From a virus, in IMG/VR virus record IMGVR_UViG_3300036905_000054: a stretch of DNA of 41,680 bases; one strand, 5' to 3'. Position 1 is the stretch's first letter. Every line of letters starts with the position of its first letter. The translations under genes and the position numbers were made by a program. Positions 14,816 through 32,882 of this stretch are shown here, piece by piece. The notes below the pieces were generated by a model. It saw only the letters and a list, made by a program, of their open reading frames with translations, was not told the DNA's origin and made no database searches.

Positions 14816-14905
14816 TGGCGGAAGTGCCGAGGCTCGAACTCGGATAGCCCTTTCAGGCTTCGGCGGCTTAGCAAACCGCTGGTTTAACCATTCACCCACA
14901 CTTCC
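14816..14905 (-). tRNA. tRNA-Ser (GCU)
   Basis: RC: GGAAGTG..GCGGT TTGCTAA GCCGC CGAAGCCTGAAAGGGCTAT CCGAG TTCGAGC CTCGG CACTTCC G CCA. Confidence 0.8.
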
Positions 14906-17745: not shown

Positions 17746-18612
17746 TCACAGTGTGTAGAAATCGTTTTTTACCTCTTTAATAAAATCTGTCAAAGCGGGG
17801 CGCAATGCCGCCATATTTTGCCATTGTTCCCAGCACAATCCCCGTTCAATCAAATCATATGTCTTTACTATGCTAGAAGATTTATCCCCACCTGGGGTCC
17901 ACCCCAAAGCCCAAATATGGTCACACACTGATGCCGCTGCTGTTACATCGTGGGTTACAACTATCACACAGTTTAAATCATCCATATTGGCTATCTTCAT
18001 GATCAGTTGTAACATCTTATCTTCCATGATAATATCGAGACCTGAAAAAGGTTCGTCCATAAGTAAGAAATATGATGATGATAAAATTTGCTGGATTATT
18101 GCTACTCTTTGTTTTTGCCCCCCTGATAATTGAGCAGGGTACAAATTTATTTTATCTGCAATGCCGAATTCATTAAGAAAGGTCATGATTTTTTCATGAG
18201 CGGTTTTTGCATCTTTTTCTTTTTTCTCTGCCGCCAACGTTAAATTACCCATAACTGTGCGATGCGCAAACAACGGATAATCTTGTGCTACTACTCCTAC
18301 CTCTCCGGCGACCACGGGAACCGCTTTCCCGTTTATCAAAACTTGTCCGGATGTGGGTTTATTAAGACCTGAAATAATACGAAATAGCTGTGTTTTTCCC
18401 CGTCCGGAAGGCCCCAATAACCCTACCATCTGCCCTTGAATTTGATTAGGGCGTTTGATCTTCTTGATTTCTGCACAGACATCCGTCAAAATAGCGCGGC
18501 TTCCAGGCATAGGCTTCGTTAGCAGGGAATTCCCATCCGCGGACGCGCTTAGGTACACATGATCAATCTTTAGGAGAGTATCACCGTAACTGTATGGATA
18601 AAGTGCGCTCAT
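17746..18612 (-). CDS. ABC transporter ATP-binding protein
   Basis: Walker A GPSGRGKT, signature LSGGQKQR, Walker B LLMDEPFSGLD, H-loop VTHD. Confidence 0.8.
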   Translation of the reverse strand: MSALYPYSYGDTLLKIDHVYLSASADGNSLLTKPMPGSRAILTDVCAEIKKIKRPNQIQGQMVGLLGPSGRGKTQLFRIISGLNKPTSGQVLINGKAVPVVAGEVGVVAQDYPLFAHRTVMGNLTLAAEKKEKDAKTAHEKIMTFLNEFGIADKINLYPAQLSGGQKQRVAIIQQILSSSYFLLMDEPFSGLDIIMEDKMLQLIMKIANMDDLNCVIVVTHDVTAAASVCDHIWALGWTPGGDKSSSIVKTYDLIERGLCWEQWQNMAALRPALTDFIKEVKNDFYTL

Positions 18613-19007
18613 TTATTTTTTCCTTTTACATCCGGCTTAACAGGAACCGGAGGATCTATTTCCTTTCCATTTCTTGCTTTCCATTTCTTAAGCCATGCGT
18701 CGTCAACAGTCCAGCTTGTTCTTTGTCCGCGAACTGTTTTGTATTGAATCAAAATCTCCTTTACTAGTTCAGTCCTTATCTCTATTGTTGGGTTATCACC
18801 AAGAGAGATGCCCCGATAAACATAGTAGCCATATCTGTTAAGATCATCCCATAGATGAACCTGCGGATGATCTTTGGGACTTATCCAAATTTTGATTCCA
18901 TCTTCTTTGAGAACAACCTTACCGTTCTTGTATGTCTTTATTGTCATCTGTTCTCCTTCTAATTTGCTCTTTCTCTCCTTTCTTAGATTTAAGCCATGCG
19001 TCGTCAT
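18609..19007 (-). CDS. hypothetical basic protein
   Basis: 132 aa, overlaps the start of the ABC ATPase gene by 4 nt. Confidence 0.45.
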   Translation of the reverse strand: MTTHGLNLRKERKSKLEGEQMTIKTYKNGKVVLKEDGIKIWISPKDHPQVHLWDDLNRYGYYVYRGISLGDNPTIEIRTELVKEILIQYKTVRGQRTSWTVDDAWLKKWKARNGKEIDPPVPVKPDVKGKNK

Positions 19008-19254
19008 ATGGTGATTTTGATTCTACGAGTTGATCCATGGCCCAGTCGCCCTTTAACTCGACAATCTTCACAGCGCCACAAATCTTACACCGATGAAGAA
19101 CTTCGGTATCAACTTGATCTTTACCCACGCAAAACGCGCCCACAATCTCCCACTCATGTGGGTGCCATTTCGATGCGATTTTGATAAAATACATCAAACA
19201 GAAACCCCCAGCAATAATTACGAATAATTCACAAAATAACCTGAGTGTATTCAT
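18919..19254 (-). CDS. hypothetical membrane protein with CxxC
   Basis: 111 aa with an N-terminal TM helix. Confidence 0.4.
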   Translation of the reverse strand: MNTLRLFCELFVIIAGGFCLMYFIKIASKWHPHEWEIVGAFCVGKDQVDTEVLHRCKICGAVKIVELKGDWAMDQLVESKSPYDDAWLKSKKGEKEQIRRRTDDNKDIQER

Positions 19255-19547
19255 CGTGATTTTAGGCGCGGAAACCCAGCAGTTATGCTGGGAGGAGCGC
19301 CGTCCTCCATGTGTTGAAACTCAGAAATGTGCAATCGTCTGGCTTGAAACTTTGTCCCCATCTCTTGCCTCTTCGACGGTTGCCTGCACAGAGGCTTGAG
19401 ACTAGAGAAGCATCCCAAACATGCTCTGAGGAACCACCCTCAGCAGGCTAACTTTGCGGCTATACAAGCCCTACTTGTCTAGTACATAGGTTTAACTTGC
19501 TTCCACCTGTTGGTCAGGCTTCCCCAAGCCCAGACTTTAGTCTGGGT
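19255..19547. other. 290-bp non-coding structured spacer (nested hairpins)
   Basis: GGCGCggaaaCCCAGCAgttaTGCTGGGaggaGCGCC, CTGAGGgtggttCCTCAG and CCCAGACTttaAGTCTGGG. No ORF and no recognisable RNA family. Confidence 0.25.
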
Positions 19548-20420
19548 CTATGACTTTCTCTCCGATCCAATTTTAGCATACGGGCAGAACATATTTTTAG
19601 CCACACCGATGAGGTAATCCTGCCCCAACCCCGTCAGCAAAATTGTTATTTGAATTGCAAGAACAGCGTCCAAATAGAAATGCTTATTCGCAGTGGCTAA
19701 CATGGCTCCGATGCCTCCCTCTGACCTCACCATGGATTCTATCATACTGAGCATCATCCAGCCAATAGCGGCGTTCTGACGCAGTACATCAAAGGCTTTA
19801 TCTATCTGCCCCAGTACGACAACTTCCCACATCGTACGCCAAGAGCCCATACGCAGCGTACGAGCTAGATCATACTGCTCTTTAGGGATAGATGCTACAA
19901 CATCTGCCATACCTGTGACATAAAAAACACTAACGCTAAAAACTAGCAGGGAGATTTTCAATTGATGCTGATTGTGGGCGGCAACTGTAAAAAAGAAACT
20001 CAACCCTACCATAGACATATAGCGGAATTTGCTCAACACCCCTACTATAGGACGCAGCCCTTCCAAGACTGTGAGGTACGCCAACCCCAGGGAAATGAGC
20101 GTGGCGATTGTCAACGCTTCTAAGTTGGCGAAGAGGCTTATACACAATTCGCCCATCAACCCCTGCCCCCATTGCTCTTTAAATGCCTCCCAAGTAGCGC
20201 CAATGGTAGGCAATAGGACAAACGGAGAGAACGCCCAAAGTAAGAAGAACATAATAACATAACCCGTCACCAGATAGGTAACCGTGGTTTTGCTAATTGC
20301 CCGATTGGGGATAAACGCTGATAGAATCTCGTTCATATATTTAAGATGCGAATAAAAAGAATTAGGGTCAGAATTTCTTCTGACCCTAAGTAGGTCTACT
20401 CCCACTCCCACCACCCACAT
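19548..20420 (-). CDS. ABC transporter permease
   Basis: Multi-TM with an EAA-like loop (DLARTLRMGSWRTMWEVVVLGQ). The start may be the internal Met at ~20336. Confidence 0.7.
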   Translation of the reverse strand: MWVVGVGVDLLRVRRNSDPNSFYSHLKYMNEILSAFIPNRAISKTTVTYLVTGYVIMFFLLWAFSPFVLLPTIGATWEAFKEQWGQGLMGELCISLFANLEALTIATLISLGLAYLTVLEGLRPIVGVLSKFRYMSMVGLSFFFTVAAHNQHQLKISLLVFSVSVFYVTGMADVVASIPKEQYDLARTLRMGSWRTMWEVVVLGQIDKAFDVLRQNAAIGWMMLSMIESMVRSEGGIGAMLATANKHFYLDAVLAIQITILLTGLGQDYLIGVAKNMFCPYAKIGSERKS

Positions 20421-20441
20421 ATTTTCAGTTGTGGGACTGTT

Positions 20442-22373
20442 TTACTTGCCTAGCAGGGTAATCGTAACCCTACGATTTTGAGCCTTCCCTTCGGCTGTAG
20501 CGTTAGAAGCTACGGGGTCTTGAGAACCGTGACCCGTGGCTTTGAAACGCTTTGCCGGGAAGTTTGTCGGCCAGTTTGTGTGCAGGTATGTAACCACAGC
20601 GGCCGCACGTCCCTTTGATAGTTCAAGGTTGTGATCTTCATTGCCTGTGCTGTCTGTATAGCCATCGACCTGAATAAACGCTCCGGTGATTGCCCAGCCA
20701 TCCTTCAATTGCTTCAACTGTGCCTCACCAGCCTCGGTAAGTTTCGCTTCATTCGTCTTGAAGTTGATATCATAGGCACGCTGACCAATGACACTTCCCG
20801 TAGCTTGCTGTTCATACGCTGGTTCCGCTGCTTCGGAGCCGGTGTTGTTATCCCCGCTGAGTATATCCTTCGCTCCCTGGATGAAAGACTTATCTTCCAC
20901 AAGCTTCACATCAGGAATTGGAGTCTCTTTGAACAAAGTTGGGTATTGCTGTACATCAATGTTCGCAAAGAGCGTATAAGTTGAGCGGAAGTTGTCATTC
21001 CCCTTATCCTTCATACCAAACAAGATAAGGTTATCATCCAAGTTGTTCACAGACGAACCGCCTAGTTCGACTATCTGCCCCGTGGTGGGATCCTTGTACG
21101 GAACACCCTTGTAATAACGGTACCAGTAGTCTCCGTTTTCGTTTGGAGCATCACCCTTATCGTCATAAACATCGGATGAAATAGCTGCCGCCTTGTGCAG
21201 AGCCAAGTCAAACGCCTTCACTTGGTCGCCACCTTCGAAAGTAGCAGCGAGCATGTTAGTGATTTCTTCCCGATTGTCTTGGAAATACTTTGCCGGACCA
21301 ATAATCACAGCGGGCATCTGACTGCGATTTTGTTTGGAAGAAACAACCTTCACTACGCCGCCCTTCTTCGTCACGGCTACAACATCTCCGGGTGTCCAAG
21401 TCACAAGGGAGTTTACACAGACATGCACCATATCCCCTGTAGGACGCCCCGCATGCACGAGTTTACGATCTTCGCACTTACCGGCGACATAATCTGTAGC
21501 GGCGGTGTTGTAATCCGGAGCATTGATCCAGTTAACTGCATCTGGATCGAAAGTCTTTTCGTCCGGGTTATTGGGGATGGCGTTATCACCAGCCCACTTT
21601 AAGGCGATGTTCCAATCACCATCACGAAGAACGCCTTCAACCAATAGGCCAGTAATTTCCTGACCCTTGGAATCTTGCGACCCAGGCATAGGGGATTGAT
21701 TGAAAGACTTGGAATCTTTCTTTACATTCGGAGGGGCCAAAAAGGCATCTTCTCCGCGGCTATATCCAGTTGCGGCGATAACCTTGAGCGTATACTTCGA
21801 AACGCAGCCCTTTGGCTTTCCCTTGCAGTCCAAGTCATAAAGCTTTGGATTGGTAGCAGCTGCAAATTGCCCCGCACCGTCGCCCATGATAATAACATAG
21901 TTCGCTCCGGTGGAACAATCCGTAGACCCCCCCGCTAGCTGGCTGGCACAAGCGATCAAATCCAATTGCATTTGATCGGTGAGATCTTGCCTCTTAAGTG
22001 TCAGATTAACATTACGCTTTGCCATCAGGGAACCAGCGGTTGTATGTTTACCGCCGTTTGCCAATAGATGACCTAACATAGCATTCCATTCCCAAACTTC
22101 TCCGATGATAGGCGTATTAGAAACGGTTGCCGGTGTGCTTTGTGGTAGGGGTGCCGGTACAACATTCGCAACCTGTGCATCTTTCACTTCTGGAAGTGAA
22201 ATGTGGGATGGGACAATCGCCTTCATGATGTTGGGAGTTGGCATCCAGCCCCGTTCCATCGCTGTCTTACCTAAGAAACAGAGTCCTACAACTCCAACAA
22301 TAACCAAAAGAACCTTCGCTTGTGGGGTAACATGTCCAGCCATAAATTTTTCTCCTCGTAAATTAAGATGCAA
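20442..22373 (-). CDS. large envelope protein: N-terminal TM anchor, periplasmic domain and C-terminal OmpA-like peptidoglycan-binding domain
   Basis: The C-terminus (GYTDSTGNEDHNLELSKGRAAAVVTYL) matches the OmpA_C motif. Calling the middle region a substrate-binding domain is a guess. Confidence 0.65.
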   Translation of the reverse strand: MHLNLRGEKFMAGHVTPQAKVLLVIVGVVGLCFLGKTAMERGWMPTPNIMKAIVPSHISLPEVKDAQVANVVPAPLPQSTPATVSNTPIIGEVWEWNAMLGHLLANGGKHTTAGSLMAKRNVNLTLKRQDLTDQMQLDLIACASQLAGGSTDCSTGANYVIIMGDGAGQFAAATNPKLYDLDCKGKPKGCVSKYTLKVIAATGYSRGEDAFLAPPNVKKDSKSFNQSPMPGSQDSKGQEITGLLVEGVLRDGDWNIALKWAGDNAIPNNPDEKTFDPDAVNWINAPDYNTAATDYVAGKCEDRKLVHAGRPTGDMVHVCVNSLVTWTPGDVVAVTKKGGVVKVVSSKQNRSQMPAVIIGPAKYFQDNREEITNMLAATFEGGDQVKAFDLALHKAAAISSDVYDDKGDAPNENGDYWYRYYKGVPYKDPTTGQIVELGGSSVNNLDDNLILFGMKDKGNDNFRSTYTLFANIDVQQYPTLFKETPIPDVKLVEDKSFIQGAKDILSGDNNTGSEAAEPAYEQQATGSVIGQRAYDINFKTNEAKLTEAGEAQLKQLKDGWAITGAFIQVDGYTDSTGNEDHNLELSKGRAAAVVTYLHTNWPTNFPAKRFKATGHGSQDPVASNATAEGKAQNRRVTITLLGK

Positions 22374-27078: not shown

Positions 27079-27414
27079 TTAGTCCATAGACTTGTATATT
27101 GAGTATACCAGCTTAACGGTGACAGACGCAAGTGCAGCCATCACTAAAATTGATACAAAATAGTCAATTGGAGCCCAACAAGAGATCACGATTGGGTGAT
27201 AAATACACACCAAAATAGCCGCAATCCACTGACTTGTACACCATGGGCAGGAAAGCAATTCGTCCAGCCAAGGGCTACGTAAACGTAACGCAGCATGTAG
27301 AGGGTTAAATATCGCCCCTTGGGTGATCAATGCACTCAGAGCACCACACGGGATGCTAAGGTATACCAGTTGGAATAAAGCGGATAAATTCATGGCTCTA
27401 TGTGTCCGATACAA
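27079..27414 (-). CDS. small integral membrane protein
   Basis: 111 aa with 3-4 TM helices. Confidence 0.5.
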   Translation of the reverse strand: MYRTHRAMNLSALFQLVYLSIPCGALSALITQGAIFNPLHAALRLRSPWLDELLSCPWCTSQWIAAILVCIYHPIVISCWAPIDYFVSILVMAALASVTVKLVYSIYKSMD

Positions 27415-27698
27415 TTATTGTAAAGACAGGCGTGGCAAGAACAACCCACTCTACAAGCTTGAATACGAGGTTTTTCAGCGCTAAATGATAAATCGGTGTA
27501 CTGCCCAGTGTTGGGGCAAACACCCCTTGTGGAACGTATATCAATTTCAGTGTACTGAATTTCGAATCGCTGACGGGGATTTGAGATCTCATACAATTCA
27601 CCCACAATGTCGCCTACAGGGTCAAGATGGATATTGATCGGAGAAATACCTTTTCCTTTCTTTACAGGAATTGCCGGTTTTGTTTTCTTTTCCTGCAT
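27390..27698 (-). CDS. hypothetical protein (Cys/His-rich C-terminus)
   Basis: 102 aa; TAATG overlap with the upstream ORF. Confidence 0.45.
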   Translation of the reverse strand: MQEKKTKPAIPVKKGKGISPINIHLDPVGDIVGELYEISNPRQRFEIQYTEIDIRSTRGVCPNTGQYTDLSFSAEKPRIQACRVGCSCHACLYNNCIGHIEP

Positions 27699-27907
27699 TA
27701 GCGAACCGATTTCTTTTTAGCTATTGCTACACAACAGGGTGCTCTAAAATATTCTGGTATATTCTGGTTCGGGTGTTCAATTTCTTCAAGCTCCTTCAAA
27801 ATATCATCCGCATCCCCTATGTCAATATTTGCATCGAGAGTTGGACCATGATTTTCTTGAGGGCGAGGTTTCTTTTCTTGTGGTCTTTCTTTTTGTACTT
27901 GAGACAT
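27698..27907 (-). CDS. small acidic disordered protein with a Pup-like helix (DADDILKELEEIE)
   Basis: 69 aa directly downstream of the Mpa-like ATPase. The basic, Pro-rich N-terminus and acidic helix resemble Pup's Mpa-binding region, but there is no GGQ/GGE C-terminus. Confidence 0.45.
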   Translation of the reverse strand: MSQVQKERPQEKKPRPQENHGPTLDANIDIGDADDILKELEEIEHPNQNIPEYFRAPCCVAIAKKKSVR

Positions 27908-29419
27908 TTAGGAATCATACCTCTGTTTTGAACTTGGAATTGGAACAGCTACCAGTTGTGCCGTAGGTGAAGATGGAGAACGAACATCGATCTTCACCCC
28001 GTTATGGTACTGCTCCATAGCTGTTACTTGCAATTTTTGATTCTCAACGAACTCTCGTAGCTCATCCATGTGATTCATACCATACTGCTCTTTATGCATA
28101 GCTGTTAAAGCAATGTCGAAATCTTTTTGACACAACCCATCAATATTTTTAGCGTCATTATTACGATCAATAGCAACCGCCGAAGCTCGCTCTACAATAC
28201 CAGCGATGAGCGCTCCACTGACCAGACTACCTAAACTGAAAACCCTAGTTCCTATAGTTGTTTCCAATTTATACAATGGATATTGTTCGCTAAAAAGTCT
28301 TTCATTGGTAGTTTTAATCAATTCCTCAGAGCTGACCCCCTTGGATAAAGGAACATTCCGCATATGAATATTCCAAATGGATGGCGCATTTTCCTTCGTT
28401 GGGGGCGCTACATAAACTGGTCGATCTATACGCCCAGGACGAATTACAGCGGGATCCAGCGTATCAGCCCGATTGGTTGCCAAAAGCACAAAAGTCCCGC
28501 TATCTTCAATTCCATCCATTTCAGAGAGAAATTGGGGAACAATGGTTTGCTCCATGCCAGCGGATGTGCGGCTTCCCCGGCGCATTAAAATAGCATCTGC
28601 TTCATCAATGAATAAAATAGCAGGGTACCCGTATTTTTTGTAGTGGCGTTTACAAAAATCAAATGCCAAACGAATTTGACTTTCTGACTCACCTACATAT
28701 TTATCTAAAATCTCCGGCCCTTTAATGTAAACAAATCCGGATTCCACTGATTCTTTGCTGTGCATACGAGCCAAGGAACCTGCGGCCGCTCTTCCGATGA
28801 GCGTTTTACCGTTCCCTGCGCGACCCCACAAAAGAGCCCCTTTAACTTCTTTTTTGTGGAAATACTTAAAAATATCTTTTTTAACATAAGGAGTTTCCAG
28901 CGCTGCAATAATTGCCTTTTTAGCATCTTCGCATGCGCCAATATCATCCCAGGTTAAAACTGCATTCGTTTTAAAGGCAAATTTAGAAGTCTGATTTATT
29001 TTTTTGATGATGACATGGTTTGTACTGTCCATGATCACATGATCCCCAATTTCCACGGGGACGGTAGCGTAATCAGTAGCCAATATACCAGATGGGGTAT
29101 TAAGTTGGATTGTTTTATCGTCTATTTGGACGACAGTTCCAGATACCCCGTAAGTAGTGTAGTCGCTTACCCGAACAATTTGTCCCGTTTCGGGATGAAC
29201 GTCTACTGACATTCCTACTTTTACTGGGATAGAACTTTCAACTTGATCTAACTCAAAAACTTGATTTGCCGTAACTACAATCACCGATTTATCCAAAACA
29301 GCGGTAACGACTCCCACATGATAAGCGGCGGCGGTGAGGCGTTTTAAAAGATTTTGCTGCTCCGTAATCTTTTCACGAGCATTATTGACAACAGCGATTT
29401 CCTTGTCAGTCATCGACAT
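27908..29419 (-). CDS. proteasome-associated AAA ATPase, Mpa/ARC-like
   Basis: Walker A GRAGNGKTLIGRAAAGSLA (Mpa-type ..GKTLIAKAVANSLA) and IKGPEILDKYVGESESQIRLAF. Walker B ILFIDEADAIL; SRH TIVPQFLSEMDGIED...ATNRADTLDPAVIRPGRIDRPVYV. The N-terminal coiled-coil/OB region is like ARC/PAN. Confidence 0.8.
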   Translation of the reverse strand: MSMTDKEIAVVNNAREKITEQQNLLKRLTAAAYHVGVVTAVLDKSVIVVTANQVFELDQVESSIPVKVGMSVDVHPETGQIVRVSDYTTYGVSGTVVQIDDKTIQLNTPSGILATDYATVPVEIGDHVIMDSTNHVIIKKINQTSKFAFKTNAVLTWDDIGACEDAKKAIIAALETPYVKKDIFKYFHKKEVKGALLWGRAGNGKTLIGRAAAGSLARMHSKESVESGFVYIKGPEILDKYVGESESQIRLAFDFCKRHYKKYGYPAILFIDEADAILMRRGSRTSAGMEQTIVPQFLSEMDGIEDSGTFVLLATNRADTLDPAVIRPGRIDRPVYVAPPTKENAPSIWNIHMRNVPLSKGVSSEELIKTTNERLFSEQYPLYKLETTIGTRVFSLGSLVSGALIAGIVERASAVAIDRNNDAKNIDGLCQKDFDIALTAMHKEQYGMNHMDELREFVENQKLQVTAMEQYHNGVKIDVRSPSSPTAQLVAVPIPSSKQRYDS

Positions 29420-29487: not shown

Positions 29488-30258
29488 CTAGTTCGGTTCG
29501 GGTAGCTTGGTAGGAAATAAGAATGTAAACTCAGCAGATGAAATTTCTTTGCGTTTACCATCGGGATCAGCAATAAAATACTGCTTTGGGTCATAACCCC
29601 TAATCTCCCCAGAAAGCTTCTCCCAAAGCTTTACCTGCCGCACTTTTTCGTAGCCTCCGAACTGCTGGCCCACCTTGTAAGCAGCATCATCTTCAGTCTG
29701 CACCACGTAGCCTCCGAACTGCGTATACTGACCCACCTTGTAAGCAGCATCATCTTCAGTCTGCAACACCCGTTTTGCTAAGTGATATTTATATTGAAGT
29801 TTGTCATGCCATTTTGGGTGAGCGATTTTAATATTTGGAAGGCGTTTAAGATTTGTGAGGAGGTCTGCGATTTTAACTAGTCTTCCGCCTTTCGACGCGC
29901 GGGCTCGATAAATAAAATCACGATAAAATTCTTTTATTCCATCGGATTCACGTCGGGTAACGGAATCTACGATATCTGCAACCACATCTCCGAATTCTTT
30001 ACGAACCTGATCAAGAGAAAAATCAGTGTCTTCAACCACATCGTGAAGTACAGCCGCTACTAAAAGTTGCTCTTTTGTAGCTCCATATAAAACGGGAAGG
30101 CAACAATCTGGAGTTTCATTGGGGGCACATTCCAGTTCTTTTTTTACAGCAAACATGACCTCTAAGCTGTGAAGAATGTGAGGGTCACCATCCGAGTCTA
30201 TTTGCCCATGGTGTGCTTTCAGCGCCAGCTCAATAGCTATTTCGAGTAAACTACTCAT
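29488..30258 (-). CDS. RelA/SpoT-type HD-domain small alarmone hydrolase (Mesh1-like)
   Basis: HGQ...HILHSLEV...AAVLHDVVEDT. Contains an internal 19-aa tandem duplication (QTEDDAAYKVGQ x2). Confidence 0.75.
   Translation of the reverse strand: MSSLLEIAIELALKAHHGQIDSDGDPHILHSLEVMFAVKKELECAPNETPDCCLPVLYGATKEQLLVAAVLHDVVEDTDFSLDQVRKEFGDVVADIVDSVTRRESDGIKEFYRDFIYRARASKGGRLVKIADLLTNLKRLPNIKIAHPKWHDKLQYKYHLAKRVLQTEDDAAYKVGQYTQFGGYVVQTEDDAAYKVGQQFGGYEKVRQVKLWEKLSGEIRGYDPKQYFIADPDGKRKEISSAEFTFLFPTKLPEPN
29650..29769. repeat. tandem duplication (~57 + 63 bp) inside the alarmone hydrolase gene
   Basis: Two units, gtagcctccgaactgc...catcttcagtctgca(c/a)cac; the second carries a 6-nt insertion. Confidence 0.85.
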
Positions 30259-30290: not shown

Positions 30291-32882
30291 CTACTCAAAA
30301 ATGAGTCTTTTTTGTAATAAGGGATTCCTAAAACTTGACACTGCAATGCCTTTGCGCACGGCATCTTCATTAGTTTTTGGCTCAGGAAACAGTCTTTTTT
30401 GCTTCACATTCCTTGATGGTTTTTTAGAAGGTTCGCCAAAAAGTTTAGCTACAGCCTTATTTGTTCTTTCGGGGTTCCACTCATCCCAATCATAGGGGAA
30501 TGACCAGCGAAATTCGGGAGTATCGTAATACCCTCCCGTGCCTCCAGCGTCTTGGTGGCCTTGGGCATCTTTTACCAGTTTCTTTTCATCCATGAGTTGC
30601 AAATAACGACCATCGGTGGTTGTTGTGATTTTGATCCTATCTTTATCTTTTAAGCCTTCTTGGACTTTCTTTTTAATATTTGCCCTTACCTCTGCTTGGT
30701 TTGGTCCCCCAGCCACATATGCAGCATGCAATTTTTGTAGTACAGGCACAGCATCCCACACTTTATTTTGATCGTAACCCTTTAATTTTTCTTTTATCTC
30801 TTGTATAACTTCAGGATTTGCGAATCCTCCCGTTTCATTCATCTCATTTTCCTGAGTAGTTAAATATTTTTTGAGTTTGTCAACTTCCTGGTCAAAAACT
30901 TTTTGCCCTTTAGCGATGTAAGCATTATATAAATCTGTAAGCGCCAATTTCACCGCAACTTTATCATTAGGGTTGAAATTTGAATACCATGATTGCATTT
31001 CTACTGGAAAATCATAAGTGAGGGATAAACCAATATTATGGATTTGCGGATCATTGATTCCGTTAAGCAAGTCCGTGAGTTCATCGATATCCGGGCTGTC
31101 ATAGTTGTGTTCACCAGTCTGAACAAACATCCACGCTTTCTTAGCTTCACTGTCACCTGTTTTCTTAATGAACTCTTCTTCATTAGGCCAAGAGGCAACC
31201 GCTACTCCGTATTTTGGGTCGTATGTAGCACTTTCTAAACCCAAAATAGCTTTGATTTTTTTCAACAGCTTTCCATCCATTCCATGTTCTTTATAATATC
31301 CTGCGATGGTCATTCCTACGCCTGGATTAATTTTATTGACGATGGCTTGTTGTTCAGGGGTAAGATCAGAAAAAGAAAAATTGTGAGACGCTAAGTATCC
31401 ACCGCCGCCAACGCCTTGTATTCTATGATCTTCCAATAATTTCATAATATATGGATGGTATTGAGGAGTAGGTTTTGCATTACCTTTACCCTTCATTTCC
31501 CCTAAAGTTCCACTGTCAGCACCTGGTGGGTCTTCATGAAGAATGAATGTAAGATGAGGTTCCCACAAAAAATCTTTTCCGTGTTTAACTGGTCTGCGTA
31601 AACTGAGTATGCCGATACCTTCTCTACCGGCGAAAGGGGAATTTCCGCAGTGACCCATGGCTTTAGCTTCTTGGTCACAGGAAGAGCGAGGTAAAAACCA
31701 CCAAGCCCAACCATCGGGAAACTTAATAAAAACTTTATCTTCTGTTTTAGGTTTAAGTCCTCGTTTTGCTGCTTCTGCCCAAGCCTGCTCAATGCTAGAA
31801 AATCGTTGTCGTAAATCAGTCCAAGTTTCTACTGTCGGACTATAATTATTGATCTCCGGTACATTCAAACCATAAAAGTGATCTAAATTTGCATGTATAG
31901 TCGATAAATCTCCTATACTCATACTATCAGCATCTGGATTTCCCCCTTTTGCTGACATGTCTTTTTTGTATTGATCTAGAACATTCTTTACTCGCTCTTT
32001 ATAAATCTGTTCTCTGGATTTCTCGCCTGGGGATGTTGGTTCAGCAGGTCTACCAGATCCAGCGGCTCCAGCGGCATGATAAAGTTCTTGCATGATAGCC
32101 AAGCGGATCCAGCGCAAAAACCAAATAACTCGATCCTGTTTTTTGAGACTCCGCTTAGCCCATGTAATTTCTTTATCTATCAAAAACTTGGATTCAGGGT
32201 TTAAAGCAAGTATAGACTTAAACATTTCCTCATAATTATAGGCTAAAATGATGTGGGAAGTGACACCAAATCTACCTTTGATTTGATTGCTTAAACTTTT
32301 AGCCATAAGAGGAGGAAATATCCTAGCTTTTTCGATATTTGGGCTAAAAGAAAATTTCTCTAGAGTAATGCCTTTGTAATCGGCGCTCGTAACATATAAA
32401 GTAGCTGGCAAACCCGTACTTCCTGTTTTAACCCCACCATCCAAAGCAACAATGGAATCAGCTTCTGCGTAATCTGGGCGTCTATTTAATCCTGGAGTGC
32501 CTTTTGCGGCGTTATTAACAGCTGTAGCAGCGGGGTTAGCCGCTTTTGATATATTCATCTGGTTATCCTCTAGAGCCCTCTGTAGGCTCTTTAATCCCGT
32601 TCCCCCGGGGGTATCTTCATAAACCGGCCCGCCCATGTCCAAAAACCATTGTTTGGTACCTCGCAGTACATTTAATTCCCCTTTTTGCTTGGGGCGCTTA
32701 AAAAGCAAAAATGTATCCGTACCGTACTTCAATTCCCAGCCGTATTGAGCTACCAGACGAGTTACTTTTGAGTCTTCGGGAGATTTTACCGCTTGTTTCC
32801 AGGCGAATCCCTTATCCCCAATGACAAATTGTCTACTGGTTTCCGGGTCGAAATAAGTAAGTTTTTGTAAAAGATTAGGCAT
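30291..32882 (-). CDS. large hypothetical protein (863 aa)
   Basis: No motif recognised with confidence. Confidence 0.65.
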   Translation of the reverse strand: MPNLLQKLTYFDPETSRQFVIGDKGFAWKQAVKSPEDSKVTRLVAQYGWELKYGTDTFLLFKRPKQKGELNVLRGTKQWFLDMGGPVYEDTPGGTGLKSLQRALEDNQMNISKAANPAATAVNNAAKGTPGLNRRPDYAEADSIVALDGGVKTGSTGLPATLYVTSADYKGITLEKFSFSPNIEKARIFPPLMAKSLSNQIKGRFGVTSHIILAYNYEEMFKSILALNPESKFLIDKEITWAKRSLKKQDRVIWFLRWIRLAIMQELYHAAGAAGSGRPAEPTSPGEKSREQIYKERVKNVLDQYKKDMSAKGGNPDADSMSIGDLSTIHANLDHFYGLNVPEINNYSPTVETWTDLRQRFSSIEQAWAEAAKRGLKPKTEDKVFIKFPDGWAWWFLPRSSCDQEAKAMGHCGNSPFAGREGIGILSLRRPVKHGKDFLWEPHLTFILHEDPPGADSGTLGEMKGKGNAKPTPQYHPYIMKLLEDHRIQGVGGGGYLASHNFSFSDLTPEQQAIVNKINPGVGMTIAGYYKEHGMDGKLLKKIKAILGLESATYDPKYGVAVASWPNEEEFIKKTGDSEAKKAWMFVQTGEHNYDSPDIDELTDLLNGINDPQIHNIGLSLTYDFPVEMQSWYSNFNPNDKVAVKLALTDLYNAYIAKGQKVFDQEVDKLKKYLTTQENEMNETGGFANPEVIQEIKEKLKGYDQNKVWDAVPVLQKLHAAYVAGGPNQAEVRANIKKKVQEGLKDKDRIKITTTTDGRYLQLMDEKKLVKDAQGHQDAGGTGGYYDTPEFRWSFPYDWDEWNPERTNKAVAKLFGEPSKKPSRNVKQKRLFPEPKTNEDAVRKGIAVSSFRNPLLQKRLIFE

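Follow-up and report, generated by a model that had tools for sequence, protein, structure and literature searches.

An Mpa/ARC-type ATPase and a Pup/UBact-like small protein with a C-terminal Cys pair, encoded side by side in an uncultured phage contig

The known Pup and UBact systems, with their ARC-type ATPases, are all cellular and need a ligase to route proteins to the 20S proteasome. Pup binds the coiled coil of the ATPase Mpa as a helix and is then unfolded (PMC8223512). We analyzed a stretch of 41,680 nucleotides (nt) of viral DNA (IMG/VR record IMGVR_UViG_3300036905_000054, hereafter the window; its source genome is at least 178 kb long) in which four adjoining genes, on the minus strand like all genes of this part, encode an AAA ATPase of the Mpa/ARC type, two small Cys-containing proteins and a membrane protein. 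The first small protein, of 69 amino acids (aa), resembles Pup and UBact at the profile level, and we propose with moderate confidence that it and the ATPase form a self-contained phage module, which has no ligase and relies on the principle by which Mpa recognizes Pup. An initial annotation, made from the sequence alone, had called the ATPase Mpa/ARC-type and the 69-aa protein Pup-like, and had suggested that the two hijack or block the Pup-proteasome targeting of the host. The open reading frames (ORFs) concerned are:

27908..29419, minus strand: 503-aa ARC/Mpa-like AAA unfoldase (ATG-start ORF, stop codon included)
27698..27907, minus strand: 69-aa Pup/UBact-like disordered protein with a C-terminal Cys pair (ATG-start ORF)
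27390..27698, minus strand: 102-aa paralogous small protein (ORF overlapping the 69-aa ORF by TAATG)
27079..27393, minus strand: 104-aa DUF1360-like membrane protein with three transmembrane segments (ORF overlapping the 102-aa ORF by ATGA)

The ATPase and 69-aa ORFs lie exactly where the initial annotation had placed them, and the TAATG overlap that it reported between them belongs one junction further on, between the 69-aa and 102-aa ORFs. The ATPase stop and the 69-aa start abut as TAA-ATG, in the same frame and with zero overlap. We note that, with the TAA at 27908-27910 and the ATG at 27905-27907, reading through the stop would yield a 573-aa fusion of the two proteins; this is probably incidental, since two related loci have gaps at this place (170 nt in L005 and 49 nt in L006). 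A gene for NAD-dependent DNA ligase starts 5 bases past the membrane-protein gene, and promoter and terminator scans gave nothing above chance. By its gene content and layout, the window appears to come from a large uncultured phage: its genes are short and unidirectional, 19 specify tRNAs, and others encode Thg1, MazG, HNH endonucleases, RlaP and SprT-like proteins. Peat and bog metagenomes contain the identical ATPase on 45 contigs, which reach 178 kb in length, and none of 50,697 deposited phage records (INPHARED) shows DNA-level similarity to the window.

Among NCBIfam models, the best match to the ATPase is TIGR03689 (pup_AAA, "proteasome ATPase"; 246.3 bits, residues 6-446 against profile positions 19-483 of 512), whereas the CDC48 (171 bits), PAN (153 bits; all PAN models 115-153) and FtsH (127 bits) models score lower on the whole protein and span the AAA module only. 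The ranking is the same for the AAA module alone (residues 150-372: pup_AAA 201.5, CDC48 172, PAN 143 and FtsH 127 bits), and Pfam finds the AAA domain alone (3.3e-29). A model made with AlphaFold2 (AF2) from 38 homologues has a mean confidence (pLDDT) of 82.8, and in Foldseek searches of the PDB its top 30 matches are all to Mpa of M. tuberculosis (7PX9, 7PXC, 5KWA, 5KZF; E 1e-34 to 1e-27, 470-500 aligned columns, TM-score 0.65-0.73), with eukaryotic Rpt subunits next (1e-25, about 380 columns). The ATPase is thus Mpa/ARC-type in both sequence and fold, as first proposed. An FtsH/Cdc48-type assignment, which the initial annotation had itself raised as the alternative, is excluded by the hidden Markov model (HMM) ranking and by Foldseek; the protein has a single AAA module and neither a protease domain nor a transmembrane segment, whereas Cdc48 combines two AAA modules with a double-psi barrel N-domain and FtsH carries a C-terminal M41 protease and transmembrane anchors. 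PAN and Rpt share with it the classic-clade AAA module (as do Cdc48/VAT), the coiled coil and the OB fold, and differ in having a single OB domain and an HbYX tail where the phage protein has two barrels and no HbYX; PAN scores below pup_AAA, and Rpt aligns over fewer columns. The parts of the ATPase are:

29336..29407, minus strand: N-terminal coiled-coil helix, residues 5-28 (AF2 model); the proposed docking site
28997..29320, minus strand: two tandem OB-like beta barrels, residues 34-84 and 90-141 (AF2 strands, Foldseek matches to Mpa)
28085..28957, minus strand: AAA module with lid, residues ~155-445 (Pfam AAA, NCBIfam ranking of the AAA module alone)
27911..27997, minus strand: disordered C-terminal tail, residues 475-503 (pLDDT below 50)

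This is the architecture of Mpa/ARC (TIGR03689; PDB 5KZF, 5KWA, 7PX9), with a coiled coil, two OB domains, one classic-clade AAA module and an Mpa-like C-terminal region, the last formed by a helix (residues 451-460) and a strand (465-472) ahead of the tail in the AF2 model. The motifs listed in the initial annotation are in place as well, namely the Walker A neighbourhood (GRAGNGKT), a second region of homology that includes RPGRID, and an N-terminal helix followed by a beta-rich region. The ATPase is nevertheless not an Mpa orthologue, because it lies below the equivalog cutoff of TIGR03689 (504.75 bits; its homologues reach 227-341 bits, so that all tested members fall under the cutoff), its coiled coil is much shorter (about 24 residues), and its C-terminus lacks GQYL and HbYX. 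Over the full length it is 31-34% identical to cellular ARC of Verrucomicrobia, Latescibacterota and Nitrospiria.

Walker A K205, Walker B D272/E273, sensor N316 and arginines R327/R330 are invariant across the 38 homologues, and so are K240 and G243 of the pore loop K240-Y-V-G243, so the motor should be active as judged from these residues. In the coiled-coil helix, A14, Q21, L25 and L28 are nearly invariant (alignment A1); a heptad assigned by hand (a/d at 17, 21, 24 and 28) puts L25 on the flank of the coiled coil (position e), from which it could pack on a third helix. The tail ends in ..KQRYDS, and the corresponding consensus K[YF]D[AS], with an aromatic residue at -3, is kept in the close clade and absent from distant members. 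Neither of the C-terminal motifs that dock on the 20S particle, GQYL (with its penultimate aromatic) or HbYX, as defined in PMC8223512, is present at this C-terminus. As a side observation, the ATPases of many distant phage homologues end in -AA, -VA or -TA (L011, L012, L015, L018, L021, L027-L029, L032, L035, L039, L043, L044, L053 and L062), and the Ala-Ala ends are reminiscent of ssrA-like C-terminal degrons; those of L006, L022, L036, L041 and L049 end in -xN.

The 69-aa ORF is coding, conserved and under purifying selection. The identical protein is on record in 76 contigs; homologues with 53-94% identity sit at the same position in relatives, and relatives whose ATPases are 58-64% identical keep an ORF of 67-68 aa at this place. 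The ratio pN/pS (nonsynonymous to synonymous changes) is 0.32-0.39 against L005 and L006, with synonymous sites near saturation. Recurrence across loci together with this ratio excludes a chance ORF. Three parts can be told apart in the protein:

27818..27907, minus strand: basic Pro/Gln-rich disordered N-terminus, residues 1-30 (MSQVQKERPQEKKPRPQ...), with the conserved ERPQEKKPRPQ; proposed as the pore-engaging end
27773..27817, minus strand: acidic amphipathic helix DADDILKELEEIEHP, residues 31-45, aligned by hhalign to Pup residues 33-50
27731..27736, minus strand: Cys pair C58-C59, the only two invariant columns of the 35-sequence alignment A3

The close clade shares the pattern M.Q...ERPQEK.PRPQ.N....IDIG..DDILKE...IEHP......C.C, and AF2 predicts a single helix in the 69-aa protein, at residues 34-42. 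The features quoted in the initial annotation are all there: the basic Pro-rich N-terminus, the acidic helix quoted as DADDILKELEEIE, and a C-terminus (...PCCVAIAKKKSVR) without GGQ/GGE. Searches of the protein against Pfam, NCBIfam, PHROGs and PDB sequences returned no match, even at E 10, and a protein database search with A3 returned only 8. A profile search of 1.84 billion representatives gave only five matches, at a database size for which short low-complexity profiles are underpowered; two of these (P0250 and P0251) bridge the clade with ERPQEKKP and the class of family members that end in CxC.

Profile-profile comparison is where the resemblance to Pup appears. Aligned by hhalign to 105 Pup sequences, the 35-sequence alignment gives a probability of 77% (P 2e-5, score 28.4) and a 36-sequence alignment of the CxC class one of 93.9% (P 1.5e-7, score 36.4), and both runs pair IGDADDILKELEEIEHPN with Pup residues 33-50, TEETDDLLDEIDDVLEEN, the Mpa-binding stretch that turns helical on the coiled coil (PMC8223512). 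As controls, reversed alignments score 19.6-21.3, and column shuffles have a mean of 6-8 and a maximum of 15.6 (100 shuffles). When a Pup HMM was run against about 760 ORFs of these loci, six small proteins adjoining ATPases ranked first, above about 660 background ORFs, with the protein of L099 at the top (E 3.5e-4). The phage small proteins also match UBact, with scores of 19.6-23.8 (P 8.5e-5 to 2.7e-3) as compared to 8-11.6 for reversed UBact, while Pup and UBact reach only 14.9 (P 0.025) with each other on the same alignments. In the close clade the match to UBact extends over 41 columns, from the N-terminus (ERPQEKKP facing DRIPRPVDP) across a GP common to both and on to the helix. By these scores, the phage proteins lie between the two accepted branches in their N-terminal two-thirds.

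The UBact sequences used here were recovered from cellular ARC loci of Verrucomicrobia, Poribacteria, Latescibacterota and Nitrospiria, where the UBact gene sits between a Dop/PafA-like gene and a 20S beta gene and its product ends in RYRQRTG[QE]; the ARCs of these loci end in ..[VI][IV]. Such genes include L114:7271-7471, L121:6228-6401, L134:7895-8071, L151:7051-7227 and L164:7062-7235, among others, and they were seen in metagenome-assembled genomes (MAGs) of Gemmatimonadota too. Like Pup and UBact, the phage proteins are small (60-100 aa) and disordered, have a Q/K/R(/P)-rich N-terminus, a Gly-rich or acidic linker and, from near residue 35, an acidic amphipathic helix with DDxLxx[IL]Dxx[LI] spacing, and are encoded beside an ARC-type ATPase. 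They differ in lacking the C-terminal half of Pup (the second helix) that binds PafA/Dop, and in having a Cys pair or cluster where Pup has GGQ/GGE and UBact has RTGQ/E, with no ligase or deamidase gene nearby. Since both the ligase-binding half and GGQ/GGE are missing, the small protein should not be conjugable by PafA.

An IMG/VR scan with the ATPase alignment found full-length relatives (31-45% identity) on about 55 viral contigs of 13-570 kb, and in a scan of GTDB genomes members of this family turned up on contigs binned with Saccharibacteria, Peribacteria and other groups, bacteria of the candidate phyla radiation (CPR) among them. The phage contigs that carry the pair differ widely in composition. 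Of 53 related loci (IMG/VR and MAG contigs), at least 42 have a small ORF of 60-115 aa directly after the ATPase. Its product typically has a basic, often Q-rich N-terminus (Q.Q occurs within the first 7 residues of 14 of 43 small proteins, as compared to 13 of 664 background ORFs), a linker that is either Gly-rich or acidic, an acidic amphipathic helix that begins at residue 27-41 and follows [IV]P..DD.L..[LI]D..[LI], a charged spacer, and a Cys cluster at the C-terminus. In most of the 43 tabulated members Cys is limited to the last ~30 residues. The initial annotation had said nothing of this defining cluster, nor of the 102-aa paralogue and the membrane partner.

The Cys clusters, which we call heads, fall into classes: a bare CxC or CC at the extreme end (..CGCG, ..CTCW, ..CKC, ..CCGCGC), CxCGxxxCxIGPF, CPxCGxxxCP, and GCxCxxCxxxxCxGH. 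Relatives end in CxC-type motifs or ..GGFR, and none of about 50 small ORFs ends in G[QE]. Several loci, including the one in the window, encode two paralogues with different heads; here the second is the 102-aa protein, with a basic N-terminus, the helix IHLDPVGDIVGELYEI and the Cys/His cluster CRVGCSCHACLYNNCIGH of the class GCxCxxCxxxxCxGH, which is also found in L006, L008, L009, P0123 and P0128. An apparent fusion of ATPase and Cys cluster in L037 proved to be an artefact of reading through a stop, and the locus really has two separate small paralogues. The small-protein family is absent from PHROGs, and no full-length relative was found in cultured phages (INPHARED). The Brevundimonas phage vB_BpoS-Polewnik (ON529863.1) does have a homologue, annotated as "proteasome-associated ATPase" (L168:2117-3538) and lacking coiled coil and OB domains, in which a disordered N-terminus with the Cys cluster RGCGDPNCMEC is fused to the AAA module; this fits a functional link between Cys clusters and the motor.

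All-vs-all clustering of 664 neighboring ORFs from 43 loci yielded one broadly conserved neighbor, a DUF1360-like protein of about 100-150 aa encoded directly after the small ORF(s) (23 of 43 loci by BLAST). In the window this is the 104-aa protein, which matches Pfam DUF1360 (PF07098) at residues 49-95 (27.2 bits against a gathering cutoff of 21, E 4e-06) and also matches phrog_781. One motif is listed from its sequence:

27226-27249, minus strand: CPWC..W motif of the 104-aa protein

The family alignment shows, in order, a first transmembrane segment (TM1), a basic amphipathic loop T.T[KR]..F.P.R.W, an invariant L..CPYC.SHW, TM2, a short loop and TM3. The gene goes with the bare CxC-ending class (25 of 34, as compared to 3 of 19 otherwise; Fisher p 1e-4, classes called by a conservative regular expression). 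In the zinc clasp, a CxC in the tails of CD4 and CD8 pairs with a CxxC of Lck, and CxC/CxxC motifs also serve Cu(I) hand-over in CCS and Atx1. The phage arrangement, a CxC on a disordered tail paired genomically with a CxxC(..H) at the membrane interface, resembles these by analogy only; the phage proteins have no sequence relationship to them.

As the initial annotation had noted, Dop/PafA and 20S subunits are not visible: none of the 39 window ORFs of at least 100 aa matched these families. Across 43 loci, the conserved neighbors of the phage ATPases include no gene for a protease, a ligase or the proteasome; the motor is accompanied by a Cys-tailed protein and a DUF1360 protein rather than by dop/pafA, pup/UBact and prcBA. 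By comparison, a Dop/PafA-like gene adjoins ARC in 37 of 50 cellular loci, many of which have 20S subunits too. Pattern scans of IMG/VR for Dop/PafA-like and 20S-beta proteins, built from alignments of these cellular loci, found nothing, which is a weak negative as such scans need exact peptide patterns. No protease partner is evident and nothing points to degradation, which may not be what the module does.

We picture the proposed phage module as follows. The 503-aa protein would be an active hexameric unfoldase of the ARC/Mpa family and the 69-aa protein a disordered relative or analogue of Pup/UBact, whose acidic helix (DDILKELEEI) may dock on the coiled coil of the ATPase, leaving the basic N-terminus MSQVQKERPQEKKPRPQ placed to enter the pore. 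Docking and pore entry are suggested by profile similarity, by the Pup-like order of parts from N- to C-terminus, and by strict gene adjacency; in the cellular system, threading reportedly begins at the N-terminus of Pup, a finding credited to Striebel et al. 2010. With lower confidence, the Cys pair or cluster would stand in for conjugation and bind cargo by a shared metal site or by thiol chemistry. For the CxC class, the best candidate for cargo or anchor is the DUF1360-like protein, with its CPYC..H following a probably cytoplasmic basic loop, and the motor might be tethered to this membrane protein or pull on it, while the 102-aa paralogue would act as a second adaptor with a different Cys/His head. 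The output would then be unfolding, extraction or remodelling rather than degradation, with membrane tethering of the motor also possible. A broader view, in which phages carry a ligase-free descendant or analogue of Pup/UBact whose Cys-tailed adaptors, with interchangeable Cys/His heads, capture different targets including the DUF1360 protein, is tentative and in our judgement rather doubtful as a whole; if true, it would add a new mode of protein delivery to AAA unfoldases, one with a wide distribution among uncultured phages, huge ones included.

Several observations weigh against the proposed module, and some of them favor an explanation that we consider unlikely but take seriously, namely that the Pup resemblance is convergent or compositional, the small proteins being partners of DUF1360 (metal-binding, redox, or lysis/regulatory) and the ATPase merely co-transcribed. 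The hhalign match to Pup spans only about 18 residues of acidic amphipathic helix, and reversed controls near 20 imply that part of the score reflects a generic helix of this kind, although the forward match is clearly higher. The Pfam Pup model (PF05639) matched none of 35 small proteins even at E 10, so the Pup likeness claimed by the initial annotation holds at the profile level (against Pup and UBact) and is invisible to Pfam. In an AF2 model of a monomeric fusion of ATPase and small protein, the small part has a pLDDT of 31-41 and a 9-residue helix and is undocked; this is weak evidence, since the coiled coil needs two protomers. What stays invariant across the family is the Cys pair rather than the helix, whose strict motif is found in only about half of the 43 members, and about 11 of the 53 loci have no such small ORF. 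The partnership with DUF1360 has its own weak points: the link between Cys tail and DUF1360 is drawn from co-occurrence, and the basic loop and CPYC should face the cytoplasm by the positive-inside rule with charge judged by eye. The search of the window for proteases and ligases, in turn, takes in 41.7 kb, and the whole genome has at least 178 kb. Against mere convergence, the small ORF adjoins the ATPase also where DUF1360 is absent, including in the multi-Cys classes; three independent Pup/UBact-like features (Q/K/R/P-rich N-terminus, Gly-rich/acidic linker and helix) come in the same order and spacing, with the helix starting at 27-41 as compared to 37 in Pup; and the forward profile score is 15 units over the reversed one.

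Interference with the host proteasome, as the initial annotation had it, would mean that the ATPase docks on the host 20S particle or that the small protein jams the host Mpa/ARC or PafA/Dop, and we now find this improbable. The identity of 31-34% to ARC is with phyla that have the UBact-proteasome system and would make plausible hosts in peat, the likeness of the small protein to Pup/UBact falls exactly in the ATPase-binding part, and the K[YF]D[AS] tail of the close clade could be a docking motif. Yet that tail is neither GQYL, HbYX nor the ..[VI][IV] of the cellular ARCs recovered, and it is absent in distant phage homologues that keep the small protein; the module also occurs in contigs binned with CPR bacteria and across very different phage contigs, an N-terminally different relative exists in a Brevundimonas phage, and the only other conserved neighbor is a membrane protein rather than a protease or ligase. 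Mimicry toward PafA/Dop is unlikely because the ligase-binding half of Pup is missing, and a phage with its own ARC-like motor beside the mimic points to a cognate pair instead. The small protein could also be a pseudo-substrate regulator of the phage ATPase, an inhibitor or timer that carries no cargo and holds the coiled coil and the pore until it is displaced or consumed. The same binding evidence would apply, and the tight coupling of the genes (TAA-ATG, TAATG, ATGA) would give roughly stoichiometric expression, but the invariant Cys cluster, the diversification of heads with paralogues per locus and the association with DUF1360 would be left unexplained, and we give this role little credence.

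A search of the literature for phage Mpa/ARC-like ATPases with Pup-like partners, or for DUF1360 in phage, found nothing relevant, and the pair of ATPase and small protein, usually with a small membrane protein, seems not to have been described before. Compared with the cellular pathways, the phage version would keep the motor and the motor-binding part of the tag, with a Cys cluster in the place of conjugation and a membrane protein in the place of the protease. If confirmed, the module that we favor would mean that recognition between Pup and a coiled coil has been reused outside proteasomal degradation; it would provide intermediate sequences that score better to Pup and to UBact than those two do to each other, and a testable function for a module in dozens of uncultured phage genomes and for DUF1360. 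A minimal, genetically encoded pair of tag and unfoldase could also serve as a tool.

Other genes in the window include an 826-aa ORF (7063-9543, minus strand) with the shoulder domain of the major vault protein (MVP; PF11978, 3.6e-26) and a vault repeat (PF17795, 1.8e-08), an MVP-like protein being unusual for a phage genome. There are 19 tRNA genes in three clusters (1749-4180, 13081-14905 and 37589-38192, minus strand), including four tRNA-Arg, four tRNA-Ser, three tRNA-Lys(CTT) and one with an aberrant anticodon loop, as well as genes for the tRNA-His guanylyltransferase Thg1 (39135-39980) and the nucleotidyltransferase RlaP (5953-6786). At 17746-22373 (minus strand), an ABC-transporter ATPase of 288 aa is encoded together with a weak permease-like ORF of 290 aa and a protein of 643 aa; the last of these has a C-terminal OmpA peptidoglycan-binding domain, which may hint at a host envelope of the Gram-negative type. 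The HD-domain gene at 29488-30258 (minus strand) encodes a 256-aa HD_4 protein, similar to hydrolases of the RelA/SpoT type, with an internal direct duplication (QTEDDAAYKVGQ...QTEDDAAYKVGQ, ~29644-29760). Upstream of it lies an 863-aa ORF (30291-32882, minus strand) without Pfam or PHROG match, shorter relatives of which are found at the same position in L005 and L006.

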